Counted from the first letter of the stretch, positions 13,272 through 25,912 are shown. The stretch is 56,099 bases of DNA from Candidatus Heimdallarchaeota archaeon (GCA_019056785.1 DXJV01000095.1:1-56099), one strand, 5' to 3'. Made by a program: numbers and translations. The notes: generated by a model from the letters alone, not told the origin.

Positions 13272-13331
13272 GAAGAAAAAAAAGAAACAACCGAACTCAC
13301 GAGAGTTCATATTTTTTTTACTTTTTTTCTT
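13272..13331. terminator. Putative bidirectional terminator between the convergent trx and OSTC genes
   Basis: GAACTC-ACGA-GAGTTC hairpin (13293-13308) with an A-tract on the left and T-tracts on the right. Confidence 0.55.
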
Positions 13332-13372
13332 GAAATTAAAAAAAAAGCAAAAGTTGAGAGGAGAAAAGGAGC

Positions 13373-13864
13373 TCAACCCAATTTTACTTTTAACATGAAA
13401 GTAACAGCAATCCAACAGATGACCACTACACCAATCCCCAGGATAAGCAAGATGGTGGCATTCTTAGGCGAATAAGCATACTGGGTGGAATAATGAATAA
13501 GGAAAAAGCCACCTGCACCAATAAACATGAGGAAACCCGCAGCAAGACCTTCTACAAGGTACTGATGATTTAAATTATTGATAATGACAATAGCCTCACC
13601 AGTATTAGGGTCCTGACCAAATGCAGGAACAGGCTCTTGGGCAAGGTCATAAAAACCGCCGATGTAAATAAAGAACAGACCGATAAATACGAGGGCGATG
13701 ATAAGCTGGATAGGAACAGATTTGGGCGCAGAAAGGCGGACAAAACGCAACTGATAATCAGGTCTGCGGACAATGGGAAGAAATGGCAGGTTCGATGGTA
13801 ACCGTTCAAGAAAAGATTTGTTCTCTTTCTTGGAGGAAGGGGTTTTGGATCTTGTCTTTGACAT
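13373..13864 (-). CDS. Oligosaccharyltransferase subunit OSTC/DC2 (OST3/6 TM family) homolog
   Basis: GGFYDLAQEP, NHQYLVEGLAAGFLMFIGAGGF and FMLKVKL match recalled eukaryotic OSTC motifs (GGIIYDVIVEPP, NGQYIMEGLASSFLF, FMRMKL); 3 TMs. Confidence 0.85.
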   Translation of the reverse strand: MSKTRSKTPSSKKENKSFLERLPSNLPFLPIVRRPDYQLRFVRLSAPKSVPIQLIIALVFIGLFFIYIGGFYDLAQEPVPAFGQDPNTGEAIVIINNLNHQYLVEGLAAGFLMFIGAGGFFLIHYSTQYAYSPKNATILLILGIGVVVICWIAVTFMLKVKLG

Positions 13865-14020
13865 ATTAATGATCACCTATGCAACATCAATATAACAACA
13901 ATAGTTTCATTGCTTAATTATAGTAAATAAAAACCAGAGAACATATTAAAAAGATTTTCTGAAAGATTGAATAGAAGGAAAAGAGAAGAGAAAGGAACGA
14001 AAAAAGAAATAGTAATAATA

Positions 14021-14593
14021 TTAACCTCGAAGTTGATAACGGTCGAGAAAAGCCTCAATCTGACGTGAGAGAAGACGAAAAGCCTCATCTATGTTTAGCC
14101 CGGTCTTTGCAGAAGTTTCGAGATAGGGAACTTCAAAACCGGTCCACTCACTAAGAGCTTTAGCATACTGTAAACCCGCATCTTTTGGAAGGCAGGGAGT
14201 CTGGCCACGCAGATCAGTTTTATTGCCAATAAGAACAATCGGGACAATACGGTTGTAGTTATTCTTTGTCAACTCATTGAGCCAAGAAGGAAGGTTTTCA
14301 AACGAGCGAGGATTAGAAACATCGAAAACAAGAAGAGCGCCACTAGTGCCCTTGAAATATACAGCACGAACAACATCAAAACGTTGCTGACCTGCAAGGT
14401 CCCAAATCTGAAAGGTGACGACAAGGTCATTGGAAAGCTGAACACGCTTAACGCAAAAGTCAGCACCAATGGTCATTGAATAACCCTCTTTGAACCCTTT
14501 ACCTAAATATTGCTCACGAATACTAGTCTTGCCTACGGCACCATCTCCAAGAAGAACGATCTTGTAAACCGCTTTCTTTTGCACGTCACTCAA
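14021..14593 (-). CDS. Rab-like small GTPase
   Basis: GDGAVGKTS, TIGADF, WDLAGQQRF, GNKTD, ETSAKTG; no C-terminal Cys. Confidence 0.95.
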   Translation of the reverse strand: MSDVQKKAVYKIVLLGDGAVGKTSIREQYLGKGFKEGYSMTIGADFCVKRVQLSNDLVVTFQIWDLAGQQRFDVVRAVYFKGTSGALLVFDVSNPRSFENLPSWLNELTKNNYNRIVPIVLIGNKTDLRGQTPCLPKDAGLQYAKALSEWTGFEVPYLETSAKTGLNIDEAFRLLSRQIEAFLDRYQLRG

Positions 14594-14783
14594 AGTCGAA
14601 TAGTCTCCATTTTAATTGCTGAAAGGAATTGCTCTTTCCGCTTGAATGAATACAAGGAAAAGGGTTCCCATTTATAGAATTTACTATAGTACTAAATCTA
14701 GTTAATCCAACTAATAATATAAAGCTGTACTTCGCGGTAAAAAAAAGAGTATGAAAAAACCTCGGTGAACCTTAAAACAGTAA

Positions 14784-22916: not shown

Positions 22917-22977
22917 TTAATTTTATATTTAAAGACACAAATCTTTGAAGAATTGCGTGCCTTTTTTCTTGTAATAA

Positions 22978-23613
22978 AGTAAAATCTCCATCATTTTTTT
23001 AGACAATGAACCTTTTGAACAGCCATTCCATGTTGGTTATACCAGTCCAGATTCAGCCAATGTTGGCATGAATATCGAAATTGGTGTTGAAGGAGCGAGC
23101 TTTCAAGAAAATTTGATTTTCGGCTCCATTCAAATTAAAATTCCTACTGCAAGTATCCCCGTCTTATCGAAAGGTGAAACAAAAACCATCCAAGTTGTTG
23201 TAAATGCTTCAACAGCAGCCAGTACAGCAAAGGCTGTCAATTTAACGGTTCGACATTATAACACGAATGGGCTTCTTTGGGAAGAAACGAAAAGCGCTGA
23301 AATACAGATAGGGCAGATAATTCGTACCAACGTAATAACAACGGATGAATGGACCGACTGGGAAGAACTGGCACCGGCGATACCCACACAAGGTTTTAGT
23401 GGTTATGAGATCCCTACTACTTTCTCAATTGTCTTTGTCTTTACGATATTGACGATTGTTACCCATCGAAAAAAGAAGAAATTGAAACGCTATCCCAAGC
23501 GTTTCTTTTTTCTGTTAAAAACTATAATTGTGGTTGCAATGATGGATAAAAAAACTGTTGTGAAGAAAAAGCCCACAGAAGGAACAAGTGAGCCCTTTTC
23601 AAGGATTTGTTGA
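22978..23613 (+). pseudogene. C-terminal fragment of an anchored Ig-like surface protein
   Basis: Frame open from 22978 with no signal peptide; TM plus HRKKKK then read-through into the convergent gene. Confidence 0.5.
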
Positions 23614-24098
23614 GAAAAAAAGACTGTTGCATTTTCCCCTTCATTTAAGACACTAAAAGTATAATAAAAGCCTCCTAATCCGTCATTTCCTCCACGGATC
23701 AATGTGAAGATTTCTGAAACAGACTCACCAATTTCAAGAGTGCGATTTCTTAATGGCGTAGGCTCCCAAACACCTTGTATTAAATTAGCTACATTAACAC
23801 TAGCATTTGAGATGGCTAAAACAGTAATATTCACTTGAAGGACACCATTTTAATATACAGCGTCCGTACTCAAACTTCTAGGAGAATCCCATTCGATAAT
23901 TAACGTTGCGTTTTTAGAGGAATAAGGTTGGCTTTCATTACCAATTTGATAAAAATCTTCTATCGGCACTCTTCGGAAGCTCTCTATTAAAAGTGCATCA
24001 AAAGAAGGCATTTGTAGGAGCAAGCTCACAAGAAAAATGACACAAGTCAAAACCATTGCCTTAATTTCTTTTTGTTGTTTAGACAAGTCGACTTCCAC
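23490..24098 (-). pseudogene. Small anchored surface protein with an internal TAA
   Basis: 23850..24098 (signal peptide) and 23490..23834 (TM plus RKKKR) are in the same frame, separated by DAVY*NGVLQV. Confidence 0.7.
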
Positions 24099-24415
24099 TC
24101 TCCTCCAGAACTATTTTATTATGTAATAAAATCTATCCCAATTGTTATTAAAATGCATTTCGCAACAATAGACACTAGTACCAGTACACCAATTGGGACA
24201 TTGATCTGCCCAAGGACAAGCAGATTTTTCATGCAAAAAATCAAACCAATACCATAGTTATCATAAAGAATTAGTATAAAACAATAGAGGATTCACTCGA
24301 CAACAAATAAGTCATTTGATTTTTTTTTCATTTAAATAAAAGATTAAGTAAAATATTTGTTGAGGAATTTTTCTTCCTCTTTTTCAACTTTCTAATATAT
24401 ACTATTATTTTCTGT

Positions 24416-25912
24416 TCATCTTAACACCAGTGTTTTCTTATAGGAGGGTTTCTTTCTTGCTTTTGTTGCTTGCTCAAAAGCATAAGCGATTTTTATGATT
24501 GTTTCCTCTTTATAGGCGCTGCTCATTATTGACAGTCCTACCGGCAGGTCAAATATTTCTCCCATTGGTACTGTGATGTTTGGGTAGCTGGCAACAGCTG
24601 CAGGCGAGGAGCTTCCTCCTGAGAATTTGTCCCCATTCAACAGGTCAATTGTCCAGGCTGGCCCGCCGCTTGGAGCGATGAGTGCTTCCACACGATGCTT
24701 TTTCAGTGCTGCATCTATTCCTTTTTTCCCGGCTAACTCTTTGCTTTTCTTTAATGCTTTCAGATATTCTTCCTCTTCCAGCGAGCCTTTTTCTTCTGCT
24801 GCTAGAAAGTGCTCCTGTCCGAAGTACGGCATCACTCTCTCTTTCTCTCTTTCGTTGAAGTCTATCAAGTCCTTCAATGTTTTATAAGGCAATTTTTCGC
24901 CATATTTTTCTAGGTAGGCTTTCATATCATTTTTCATCTCATAGAGGAGCACCAAGTATTCTTCCTCTCTGAAGTCTTGTGTTGTTTCGATATTTGCTTC
25001 ATCGATTATCTCTGCTCCCAGCTGCTCAAGGGTTTTCATTGCTTGCTCCATTAGTTTATCCCCTCTTCGATTGAAACCAAAAAAGTTTCGTGCCACACCG
25101 ATTCTCATTCTCTCTATTGCTCCTTCTTCGAATAATTGTTCATTTTCGATTATTGCTGACTTCTTTTGTTGTGTAGTTATGGTATCTTCTTCATCGCTTC
25201 CGCTTATCACTTCTAAGAGTATTGCGGCATCTTTTACTGTTCGGGCCATTGGTCCTGCTGTGTCTTGGCTATGAGCGATTGGTATTATCCCTGTTCTGCT
25301 TACTAGTCCCAGTGTTGGTTTAATGCCTACAATGCCATTTGTCTGAGCCGGGCAGATGATCGAGCCATCTGTCTCTGTTCCGACTGCAGCTACACACAAA
25401 TTTGCTGCTGCTGCCACTGCTGACCCTGAACTCGAGCCACAAGCGGAACGATCCAGTATGTATGGGTTCTTTGTTAACCCCCCTCTACTACTCCAACCAC
25501 TCGTTGATCTTGTGGAGCGAAAGTTTGCCCACTCGCTTAAGTTGGTTTTGCCGATGATTATTGCTCCGGCTTTACGTAACTGTTGAACCACAAAAGCATC
25601 CTCTTCCGGATAGTGGCCTACAAGAGCCAACGAGCCGGCTGTCGTCATCATTCTGTCTGCAGTATTAATGTTGTCTTTAATCATAATTGGTATTCCATGC
25701 AATGGCCCTCTAACGTTTCCTGCTTTTCGTTCGCGGTCAAGTTGTTCGGCGATTTGAAGTGCATCCGGATTAAGCTCAATTACAGCATTTAGTCTCGGAC
25801 CCGTCTTATCTATGGTAATTATTCTTCTGAGAAATTCCTTCACTAATTTTTTTGCACTTACCTTCCCCGTTTTGAGCCTTTGCTGTGCTTCTTCAATGGT
25901 TAATTCTTTCAC
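24416..25912 (-). CDS. Amidase signature family protein
   Basis: GPLHGIPIMIKDNI, GKTNLSEWA, GSSSGSA, GTETDGSI. Confidence 0.95.
   Translation of the reverse strand: MKELTIEEAQQRLKTGKVSAKKLVKEFLRRIITIDKTGPRLNAVIELNPDALQIAEQLDRERKAGNVRGPLHGIPIMIKDNINTADRMMTTAGSLALVGHYPEEDAFVVQQLRKAGAIIIGKTNLSEWANFRSTRSTSGWSSRGGLTKNPYILDRSACGSSSGSAVAAAANLCVAAVGTETDGSIICPAQTNGIVGIKPTLGLVSRTGIIPIAHSQDTAGPMARTVKDAAILLEVISGSDEEDTITTQQKKSAIIENEQLFEEGAIERMRIGVARNFFGFNRRGDKLMEQAMKTLEQLGAEIIDEANIETTQDFREEEYLVLLYEMKNDMKAYLEKYGEKLPYKTLKDLIDFNEREKERVMPYFGQEHFLAAEEKGSLEEEEYLKALKKSKELAGKKGIDAALKKHRVEALIAPSGGPAWTIDLLNGDKFSGGSSSPAAVASYPNITVPMGEIFDLPVGLSIMSSAYKEETIIKIAYAFEQATKARKKPSYKKTLVLR

Follow-up and report, generated by a model that had tools for sequence, protein, structure and literature searches.

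Two-armed A/T strand-skew domains anchored at discrete points in a Candidatus Heimdallarchaeota genome

Several described systems come close to the pattern reported here. Replication-associated skew jumps at the origins of bacterial and archaeal chromosomes and forms the skew 'N-domains' of mammals; at most bacterial and archaeal origins the leading strand carries more T than A (Lobry-type skew). Where single strands are exposed, for example in mitochondria and at bacterial lagging-strand templates, deamination gives C>T and A>G changes. Strand-coordinated mutation is known from ssDNA clusters at resected breaks and from immunoglobulin somatic hypermutation, with Pol eta errors at A:T. Strand asymmetries anchored at transcription start sites, with kilobase-scale decay, are known in mammals, and gene-conversion tracts are of the order of ~1-1.5 kb. 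GRINS are duplicated regions longer than 500 bp that share >80% identity inside one cluster, tied to gene conversion, in which GC and TA skews are usually correlated (G+T versus C+A) and the mean absolute values of both exceed 0.15 (PMC8256042). Our literature search found no published description of A/T strand-skew foci of the kind described below.

The window, the whole 56,099-nt stretch of DNA that was analysed, contains domains of opposite A/T polarity. In raw composition, the A-T skew is +0.30 at 13300-16300, +0.30 at 17900-18900 and +0.40 at 20100-21700, and it is inverted at 16300-16750 (-0.21), 21800-22900 (-0.39) and 24400-25912 (-0.32). The initial annotation had described both the three A-rich, T-poor left domains, which four-fold composition reproduces, and the inversion to the right of the foci; it had also called 41-56 kb comparatively balanced, and the raw skew of 41000-56099 is indeed -0.04. 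Ranked by |AT skew| among 5595 genome windows of 1 kb (99th percentile, 0.34), those at 15.0-16.5, 20.5-21.5 and 22.0-23.0 kb belong to the top 1% genome-wide. Silent sites show a + strand rich in A and poor in T over 13.3-16.3, 17.0-18.9 and 20.2-21.7 kb. A fine map in 240-nt bins, on which change points were then located, places sharp two-sided flips at 16321/16324 and ~21760 and one-sided steps at ~18.9 kb and 24.36 kb, a density of 3-4 steps per 11 kb. Thus, of the two foci named earlier, the one at the tRNA keeps its position, and the first lies at 16321, not 16305. The skew is strongest adjoining the focus and weaker with distance, as had been claimed and as the averaged profile below confirms. 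It is chiefly one of A versus T; G/C contributes only weakly, in the purine/pyrimidine sense. The features are listed here with AT4, the AT skew at four-fold sites of the coding strand, which was used to control for gene orientation.

13300..16321, left arm of focus 1: + strand A-rich and T-poor at silent and intergenic sites (composition, Pfam)
13373-13876, - strand, OST3-like gene in the left arm of focus 1: coding-strand AT4 -0.59 (Pfam)
14021-14593, - strand, Ras/Rab-like GTPase gene in the left arm of focus 1: AT4 -0.68 (Pfam)
14784-15921, - strand, split NAD-epimerase in the left arm of focus 1: AT4 -0.71 for 14784-15314(-) (Pfam)
15820-16078, A-rich spacer in the left arm of focus 1: 164 A in 259 nt, A-T skew +0.62
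16079-16660, + strand, intact Rab-like GTPase gene holding focus 1: its first 240 nt belong to the left arm
16321..16324, switch point of focus 1, inside the Rab-like GTPase gene (change-point analysis, sequence)
16325..16950, short right arm of focus 1: + strand A-poor, skew from -0.5 to 0
16950..18918, A-rich ramp: skew from 0 to +0.78, terminating at the one-sided step at ~18.9 kb
16740-17678, - strand, paralogous membrane-protein gene 1 under the A-rich ramp: nearly unskewed
17899-18858, - strand, paralogous membrane-protein gene 2 under the A-rich ramp: AT4 -0.62
19278-21572, + strand, SBP_bac_5/TSP3 gene: AT4 +0.74 (Pfam)
20200..21760, left arm of focus 2: A-rich 3' half of the SBP_bac_5/TSP3 gene and spacer
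21711..21819, + strand, tRNA-Ile(GAU) with a 31-nt intron (Rfam; ARAGORN, introns allowed)
21761..22950, right arm of focus 2: + strand T-rich and A-poor, -0.4 to -0.6, spacer included
21829-22395, - strand, gene in the right arm of focus 2: AT4 +0.82
22343-22564, - strand, gene in the right arm of focus 2, within the T-rich arm
24356..25400, one-sided T-rich arm: -0.5 to -0.66, 3' half of the amidase gene
24416-25912, - strand, amidase gene: AT4 +0.53

Across the switch of focus 1, A/(A+T) at silent sites drops from 0.79 to 0.32, and the protein encoded at 16079-16660(+) is identical in 13 independent contigs. The switch of focus 2 falls, by change-point analysis, within the tRNA-Ile(GAU) gene. 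The step at 24.36 kb falls where a segment that varies between strains (~23.0-24.4 kb) ends on the right, and may be an indel border instead of a focus.

The skew belongs to the DNA strand and not to the gene. Each of the seven window genes with an AT4 value (-0.71 to +0.82) lies in the outer 1-2% of genes, and in all seven the sign tracks the DNA strand, never the coding strand. When the outward strand is defined as the one running 5'->3' away from a focus, the third-position AT skew within 500 nt of 15 foci is -0.62 in either gene orientation, so that the earlier statement that the bias is there whichever strand codes survives control for orientation; the intergenic value over the same distance is -0.44. 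Codon positions 1 and 2 shift slightly in the same direction as third positions, and amino-acid composition moves with the skew, meaning that the proteins have drifted the same way. Genome-wide, the AT4 values of adjacent genes are correlated, at +0.53 for pairs sharing a strand and at -0.44 for pairs on opposite strands. The extremes are steep: a gene read towards its focus (C70:38295-39293) has T at 0 of 139 four-fold sites, and at the 176 such sites of the EF-1alpha coding strand A occurs 0 times and G once. The A-depletion is independent of neighbouring bases.

The same loci in congeners date the skew. Where the Rab/tRNA and EF-1alpha loci have orthologues, there is no skew in G008 or G010 and only a narrow one in G005; the maximum 1-kb skew is 0.29 in G010 and 0.36 in G005 (200 kb each) versus 0.88 in this genome (G000). 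Taking as ancestral the state at four-fold sites of outward coding strands on which three congeners agree, adenine has been replaced at 45 of 53 sites (A>T 25, A>C 13, A>G 7), and the reverse change T>A is found at only 2 of 135. The first two codon positions have seen 179 losses of A on this lineage and 78 gains. This comparison of sequences indicates that the skew arose through substitutions on this lineage, after its split from the congeners, and it bears out the earlier statement that each strand is A-depleted 3' of the focus. The A>G and C>T asymmetry of exposed ssDNA, which had been invoked, does not fit these counts, and the GC skew is small.

Recent strain differences tell another story about the present. 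Along the arms of the actin focus and of the foci in the window, A>T changes number 6 and T>A changes 12, and outward-strand A and T are lost at per-site rates of 0.0138 and 0.0140; the idea that the DNA is currently being rewritten thus finds no detectable counterpart at these foci. At the EF-1alpha focus the SNVs (A>T 5, T>A 1) tilt in the expected direction but are few, clustered and unreliable; 4 differences clustered within 22 nt of EF-1alpha are private to this assembly. Since strain differences are unbiased at four foci, the skew there is mostly inherited. An assembly artefact is ruled out because the same DNA occurs in independent assemblies: the sequence is near-identical in 13 contigs, both foci are spanned collinearly at 99.9%, the skew is common to strains at 93-97.5% identity, and 31-mers of the sequence are present in sequencing runs from 14 studies. 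Jumps caused by misassembly, which the initial annotation had named as a refutation, are therefore not what is seen; for jumps at borders of horizontal transfer, the other case it named, the 24.36 kb step does sit at a strain-variable edge, but the flips lie mid-gene in core genes.

The pattern extends through the genome, with dozens of foci that are locally 2.5-5 kb apart. Strong sharp jumps go from A-rich on the left to T-rich on the right in 18 cases versus 1 in reverse (300-nt arms, threshold 1.0), and in 12 versus 0 with 500-nt arms. Switches are a few codons wide and inside intact ORFs, and some steps are one-sided. The mean profile of 15 foci is ±0.5-0.64 over the first 500 nt, ~±0.1 at 3-7 kb and 0 past 10 kb, with a half-distance of ~1-1.5 kb, which agrees with the earlier claim of a site-anchored bias that is strongest beside the focus. 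Amplitudes in the genome reach ~0.9-1.0. GC skew at these foci is 0.1-0.2 in the purine/pyrimidine sense, running with A and not with T. tRNA genes are enriched, with a jump >0.3 at 7 of 31 versus 2% of random sites and a reverse jump at 0 of 31; the foci also include EF-1alpha, EF-2, actin, solute-binding proteins and ppdK. Both thermosome genes and 24 of the 31 tRNA genes are unskewed, and switch points are not enriched at start codons (42% versus 34%). Motif discovery, which had been suggested for the jumps, found no common motif or k-mer beyond chance among the 15 foci, and the only repeats at the window's two foci are low-complexity purine/pyrimidine runs. Many skewed domains abut contig ends.

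No explanation by classical origins, transcription, codon selection, deamination, GRINS or DGRs passes every test. The domains resemble replication skew in their independence of orientation, their strength at silent sites, their sharp flip and gradual return, and the A/T sense of the leading strand; they differ in having dozens of foci, a decay over 1-2 kb instead of a replichore, the amplitude given above, a G/C component that is weak and of opposite sense, no Orc1/Cdc6 gene nearby and no conserved foci in congeners. As had been noted, no orc1/cdc6 is in the window: the Cdc6_C profile matches only on contig C76 (99 bits) and weakly on C3, and nowhere on this contig. A classical archaeal oriC, which combines an Orc1/Cdc6 gene with ORB or mini-ORB repeats around an unwinding element and has skew of one sign along the replichore, was rejected on the missing neighbouring orc1/cdc6, on the skew being gone by 10 kb and on the lack of skew at the orthologous loci of G008 and G010. 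GRINS share the intense local skews, the abrupt changes inside intact ORFs, the prominence of third positions and the altered amino-acid use. AT skew here is 0.5-0.64 and GC skew 0.1-0.2. The tracts, however, are single-copy, concern essentially A versus T and have a fixed two-armed polarity around points; when 13300-25912 is searched as DNA against the genome it comes from, all matches are short (62-262 nt, 69-84% identity), and GRINS were rejected since no copy of >500 bp and >80% identity is found there. Deamination of ssDNA (transitions, G+T versus A+C) was rejected because A>T dominates and the small GC skew runs with A.

Break-induced mutation and hypermutation are alike in their kilobase tracts from a start point, the switching strand bias and the mutation of A to each of the other bases. 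Such events are somatic or experimental, whereas the present skew is fixed and near saturated in a prokaryotic chromosome; the WA-type context preference of immunoglobulin hypermutation is not seen at the foci, and 5'->3' resection would expose the strand that is A-rich here, not the A-poor one. Adenine-specific change to any base also recalls DGRs, yet the foci are not DGRs: neither G000 (82.5% complete) nor any of 8 congeners matches the reverse transcriptase profile RVT_1, and the skewed tracts, being without duplicates, hold no template/variable repeat pair.

We propose, with about as much confidence as doubt, that the domains were left by a substitution process that works at the DNA level, treats the two strands differently, is anchored at discrete points and runs outward. 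The outward strand would shed adenine from each focus, mostly to T, then to C, then to G, which is the same as thymine loss on the partner strand; the intensity would be near saturation at the focus and halved by ~1-1.5 kb. We infer DNA synthesis or exposure as the cause: repeated tracts of low-fidelity synthesis or single-strand exposure may have started at the focus and extended outward to variable lengths, with fill-in at breaks or nicks, the restarting of stalled forks or local initiation as candidates, and with tRNA genes and some very active genes as the probable preferred sites. Purifying selection preserved the proteins, and thus the trace is strongest at silent sites; as no activity is detectable at the foci tested, much of the skew would be a slowly decaying fossil. 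Several observations sit uneasily with this proposal. The 15 foci have no motif in common, some steps are one-sided, and recent strain differences in the arms of the window's foci and the actin focus are strand-symmetric. Intergenic skew is below third-position skew, which counts against a pure mutation model, as this predicts it to be at least as strong. The near-absence of a base at EF-1alpha silent sites requires a very strong bias or additional codon selection.

It is a speculative step further, and a rather unlikely one, to take the foci as recurrent start or restart points of DNA synthesis: dozens of dispersed, eukaryote-like sites, many of them at tRNA genes and very active genes, with an asymmetric polymerase step that loses adenine. 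Chromosome copying, repair and recombination are almost unstudied in Asgard archaea, of which few are cultured and growth is very slow. If the foci are sites of recurrent synthesis or breaks, they give testable coordinates for initiation, fork restart and recombination hotspots in uncultured organisms; if they are synthesis starts, they amount to a sequence-readable map of dispersed initiation and restart sites on an Asgard chromosome.

Among the alternatives, a rather unlikely one links the skew to transcription: very active bidirectional promoters would leave the non-template strand exposed (R-loops), or transcription-coupled repair would shield the template strand, so that adenine lesions would become fixed only on the outward, non-template strand of sense and upstream-antisense transcripts. 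Kilobase-scale decay from a start is typical of TSS-anchored asymmetries, very active genes and tRNA genes are among the foci, and in yeast A/T skew and poly(A) tracts are linked to R-loops (PMC4911931). As a class, however, such asymmetry must follow the transcribed strand, and it was rejected on the equal skew in both gene orientations, including genes read towards the focus. Its switches would not be expected inside ORFs and away from start codons, nor its arms to abut at a single point instead of leaving spaced divergent starts, and other presumably highly expressed genes, such as those for the thermosome and most tRNAs, are unaffected, as is EF-1alpha in G008 and G010.

Routine dispersed replication origins of a non-Orc1/ORB type, where the outward strand would be newly made leading strand and a lower-fidelity enzyme would copy the first 1-2 kb before handing over, creating a local leading/lagging asymmetry, are an unlikely explanation. 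They would account for two back-to-back arms joined at one point with nearly uniform polarity, for the excess of T over A on the outward strand and for the sawtooth form; there is also a weak contig-scale background skew, and segments with a T-rich + strand are slightly richer in + strand genes (rho -0.23, p 0.07). On contig C84, however, the background regains the same sign past the focus, and the skew decays within 1-2 kb where it should persist. The foci are also too dense and are not kept in congeners, the weak G/C component is opposite to the usual G-rich leading strand, the orc1/cdc6 locus shows a weak change of reverse polarity, and recent substitutions are without detectable bias.

It is quite improbable that the bias lies in fixation instead of mutation, through selection on strand composition, for example for or against RNA:DNA hybrids or for a polar DNA signal, or through strand-asymmetric biased gene conversion at recombination hotspots, with a single heteroduplex type arising on either side of the break. 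To hold a ratio of 5:1, such a bias should make recent outward T>A changes rare, and they are not, at 12 versus 6 A>T with equal per-site rates; tRNA-choice selection cannot yield opposite codon preferences on two coding strands, and the amino-acid composition dragged along resembles pressure, not benefit. The stronger skew at third positions than between genes, the near saturation of EF-1alpha silent sites, a decay comparable in length to gene-conversion tracts and the hotspot-like turnover of foci between species speak on its side. That there was no process in situ, only mosaic imports from skewed donors or an assembly or binning artefact, is extremely improbable and largely refuted already, for although the 24.36 kb step, the domains reaching contig ends and the private EF-1alpha cluster would suit it, random imports predict both polarities and rectangular blocks, not 18 versus 1 and graded decay, and the collinear independent assemblies, the skew shared by diverged strains and the mid-gene flips in core genes contradict it.

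Whatever its origin, the skew can pass for horizontal transfer in composition-based screens and may upset binning and assembly. It also locally rewrites codon usage and amino-acid composition, and it generates long spurious ORFs on the opposite strand.

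Dozens of anchored foci, points at which the silent-site composition of the plus strand switches from A-rich on the left to T-rich on the right, form a real and striking strand-asymmetry system in this genome. In the window, the intervals singled out initially have raw A-T skews between +0.30 and +0.62 to the left of the foci and between -0.21 and -0.39 to the right, compared with -0.04 at 41-56 kb; the strongest 1-kb windows rank in the top 1% of the genome. Coding-strand A-T skew at four-fold sites is -0.59 to -0.71 in the minus-strand genes at 13.4-15.3 and 17.9-18.9 kb, +0.74 in the plus-strand SBP gene, and +0.82 and +0.53 in the minus-strand genes right of the tRNA. 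All of these values fall within the outer 1-2% of genes, and their sign tracks the DNA strand. A 240-nt map of the window gives a sawtooth profile with the following elements:

Ramp 1: rises to +0.75 and ends in a flip at 16321/16324, within the intact Rab-like GTPase gene (16079-16660, plus strand)
Ramp 2: climbs to +0.78 before a one-sided step at ~18.9 kb
Ramp 3: ends in a flip at ~21760, within the tRNA-Ile(GAU) gene (21711-21819, plus strand)
One-sided T-rich arm: begins at 24.36 kb

Raw composition, four-fold sites and the 240-nt map thus bear out the strand asymmetry first noticed in the sequence. The tRNA-Ile gene contains an intron; it is missed by default ARAGORN and detected by Rfam and by intron-aware ARAGORN.

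The skew statistics were restricted to four-fold sites, or to third codon positions and intergenic DNA, on a gene set from a custom ORF and codon model (2585 genes, 87.5% coding). The window is an entire 56-kb contig of a 2.87-Mb genome in 102 contigs, 82.5% complete. On the outward strand, which runs 5' to 3' away from a focus, third-position skew within 500 nt is -0.62 whichever strand codes, and intergenic skew is -0.44; codon positions 1 and 2 shift slightly in the same direction over this distance. As the value is the same for both orientations, the skew does not vanish once gene orientation is controlled for, and its claimed independence of gene orientation stands. Antisense-ORF miscalls are ruled out as its cause, as the genes belong to recognisable families, and so is the T-richness of membrane proteins, as the skew is located at four-fold sites. 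Opposite or next to real genes, the skew generates spurious long ORFs rich in F/L/S (15199-15921, 20839-21390 and 21418-21660 on the minus strand; 22359-22586 on the plus strand), which could be mis-annotated as membrane proteins.

Across the genome, the four-fold skews of neighbouring genes, read on their coding strands, correlate positively when the genes share a strand (+0.53) and negatively when they do not (-0.44). On the contig carrying EF-1alpha (C84), skew rises over ~10 kb to +0.96, flips at the EF-1alpha 5' end and decays beyond. Strong sharp jumps run from A-rich left to T-rich right rather than the reverse (22 versus 3, 18 versus 1 and 12 versus 0 with rising stringency), and transitions in the reverse direction are gradual. 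The mean profile of 15 foci is +-0.5-0.64 within 500 nt, halved by 1-1.5 kb, down to ~0.1 at 3-7 kb and gone past 10 kb; GC skew around them is just 0.1-0.2, in a purine/pyrimidine sense. A motif search at the 15 switch points returned purine-rich low-complexity k-mers and no common motif, and the repeats at the two window foci are low-complexity only. tRNA genes are enriched, with a jump >0.3 at 7 of 31 versus 2% of random sites and a reverse jump at 0 of 31; of 24 two-armed flips, 3 are at a tRNA. Genes that contain or adjoin other foci are those for EF-1alpha, EF-2, actin, a solute-binding protein, ppdK, a ClC channel, an E2-like protein, ARMT1 and TFS. Start codons are not significantly associated with foci (42% versus 34%) and both thermosome genes are unskewed; high expression does not seem to suffice for skew.

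The flips at the two window foci are not misassemblies. Assemblies from JGI, ENA, NCBI and Logan include 13 contigs that encode a letter-identical Rab protein; four of these contigs match the window at 99.8-99.9% identity, and the longest two of the four are collinear with it through both foci. Two further strains are 97.5% and 93% identical, and 31-mers from the stretch occur in sequencing runs of 14 studies, covering sediment and vent metagenomes. Assembly artefact or import is largely excluded by polarity, graded decay and the independent assemblies; import from a skewed donor is rejected because of polarity and graded decay.

Judged by the genomes compared, the skew system is specific to this lineage. 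In two congeners (G008 and G010), both the orthologous Rab/tRNA locus and EF-1alpha are unskewed, a third (G005) has narrow skew at EF-1alpha, and no 1-kb window exceeds 0.36 in the 200 kb examined from each of G010 and G005. With substitutions polarised against three congeners, 45 of 53 ancestral four-fold A on outward coding strands have been replaced (A>T 25, A>C 13, A>G 7), and just 2 of the 135 ancestral T have changed to A. Losses of A outnumber gains at codon positions 1 and 2 (179 versus 78), and two-fold sites and amino-acid use are shifted to match. The A-poor strand at four-fold sites is now approximately T 0.52, C 0.24, G 0.13 and A 0.10, as an average of two gene classes, and the adenine depletion is independent of sequence context. 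As read from these substitutions, the change is adenine loss on the outward strand, or thymine loss on its partner. A separate, strand-symmetric compositional shift concerns G+C (38.6% in this genome versus 32-33% in the sampled congeners G005 and G010), and T>C at four-fold sites is frequent on its lineage (39/135).

Recent changes were counted at neutral sites along the arms of the window's foci and the actin focus, with strains at 93-98% identity and a more distant strain as the outgroup. On the outward strand, A>T occurred 6 times versus 12 for T>A, per-site loss was 0.0138 for A versus 0.0140 for T, and A was gained 42 times and lost 15 times, all being small numbers. The A-to-T loss ratio on the long branch is ~4.8, whereas recent loss is symmetric; thus, the asymmetry is not detectably operating at the tested foci. 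The skew there seems to be relaxing, and the system would be largely fossil at these foci. At the EF-1alpha focus, the few SNVs lean to A loss and are unreliable as a spectrum, as they cluster in low-complexity sequence or at the ends of contigs.

What can be inferred robustly is geometry: on each strand the alteration lies 3' of a point, is sharp there and graded further out, and ignores genes. Synthesis tracts or exposure of one strand would leave this geometry, which is why we favour, with about even confidence, a site-anchored process of repair, restart or initiation with an error bias towards loss of adenine. DNA-synthesis tracts, or tracts of single-strand exposure, would all begin at one fixed site and run on for differing lengths, and the error bias would act in those tracts; candidate starts would be breaks, nicks, stalled forks or initiation events. 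The initial annotation ascribed the domains to site-anchored rewriting of the DNA with a deamination logic, and it is partly upheld: the skew is real, anchored and orientation-independent, but the replacements do not match the A>G and C>T expected of single-stranded deamination, and rewriting in the present is not detectable at the window's foci and the actin focus, where per-site losses of A and T are nearly equal.

It is less likely that the foci are routine chromosomal origins. They are dense, their skew decays within kilobases and they are not conserved; past the C84 focus the background keeps its sign, and the orc1/cdc6 locus shows a weak change of opposite polarity. Leading-strand calibration from that locus and from gene-strand bias, both weak, gave opposite answers. 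In a sister strain (GCA_021498085.1, L085:20350-21140), orc1/cdc6 lies ~9 kb downstream of the actin gene and a PolB gene ~9.5 kb upstream; the corresponding loci here fall on separate contigs (C5 and C76). A transcription-based cause fails both the orientation test and the start-codon test. Codon selection fails because it is unable to give opposite preferences on two strands, and recent differences show no fixation bias of the strength needed to maintain the skew.

We know of no published account of these foci, and no description of the pattern was found in the literature on Asgard and archaeal skew. GRINS likewise show abrupt skews inside ORFs, with the cause unexplained; however, they are defined as duplicated regions, usually with G+T against C+A (PMC8256042), and the tracts here are single-copy with a mainly A-against-T skew. 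DGRs share the adenine-to-any-base signature, but the skewed tracts here have no repeat pair, and a search of this 82.5%-complete genome and of eight congeners turned up no reverse transcriptase, which counts against DGR adenine mutagenesis.

Strongly skewed domains often extend to a contig end. A search of the 82.5%-complete genome gave no ribosomal protein L2 (PF03947); thus, the main ribosomal-protein cluster may be unassembled or unbinned. EF-1alpha has an in-frame TGA at the Gly of its DxPGH motif (C84:166667-166669 = L001:10668-10670), in a 22-nt stretch with 4 differences private to this assembly; as the 463-aa protein is intact in four other assemblies, the TGA probably reflects a consensus error at this site or a rare variant.

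The window genes include Ras/Rab-like GTPases and an OST3-like subunit, and a eukaryote-type actin, an E2/UEV-like protein and a Y-family polymerase (C65:19675-20127) are encoded elsewhere in the genome. At 12850-16660 lie, in order, thioredoxin, OST3-like, Rab-like, epimerase and Rab-like genes; in congeners, the Rab, Rab, OST3 and thioredoxin genes are still adjacent, beside the tRNA. The ~5 kb between cluster and tRNA in the window holds two paralogous membrane proteins and an SBP_bac_5/TSP3 protein. The NAD-dependent epimerase gene (14784-15921, minus strand) is split by a frameshift in the window and near-identical strains; the 93%-identity strain (L035, L036) has an unbroken version of 333 aa. 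Between the tRNA arm and the amidase gene lies a small strain-variable island (~23000-24400), where L035/L036 show 51-76% identity and carry other genes.
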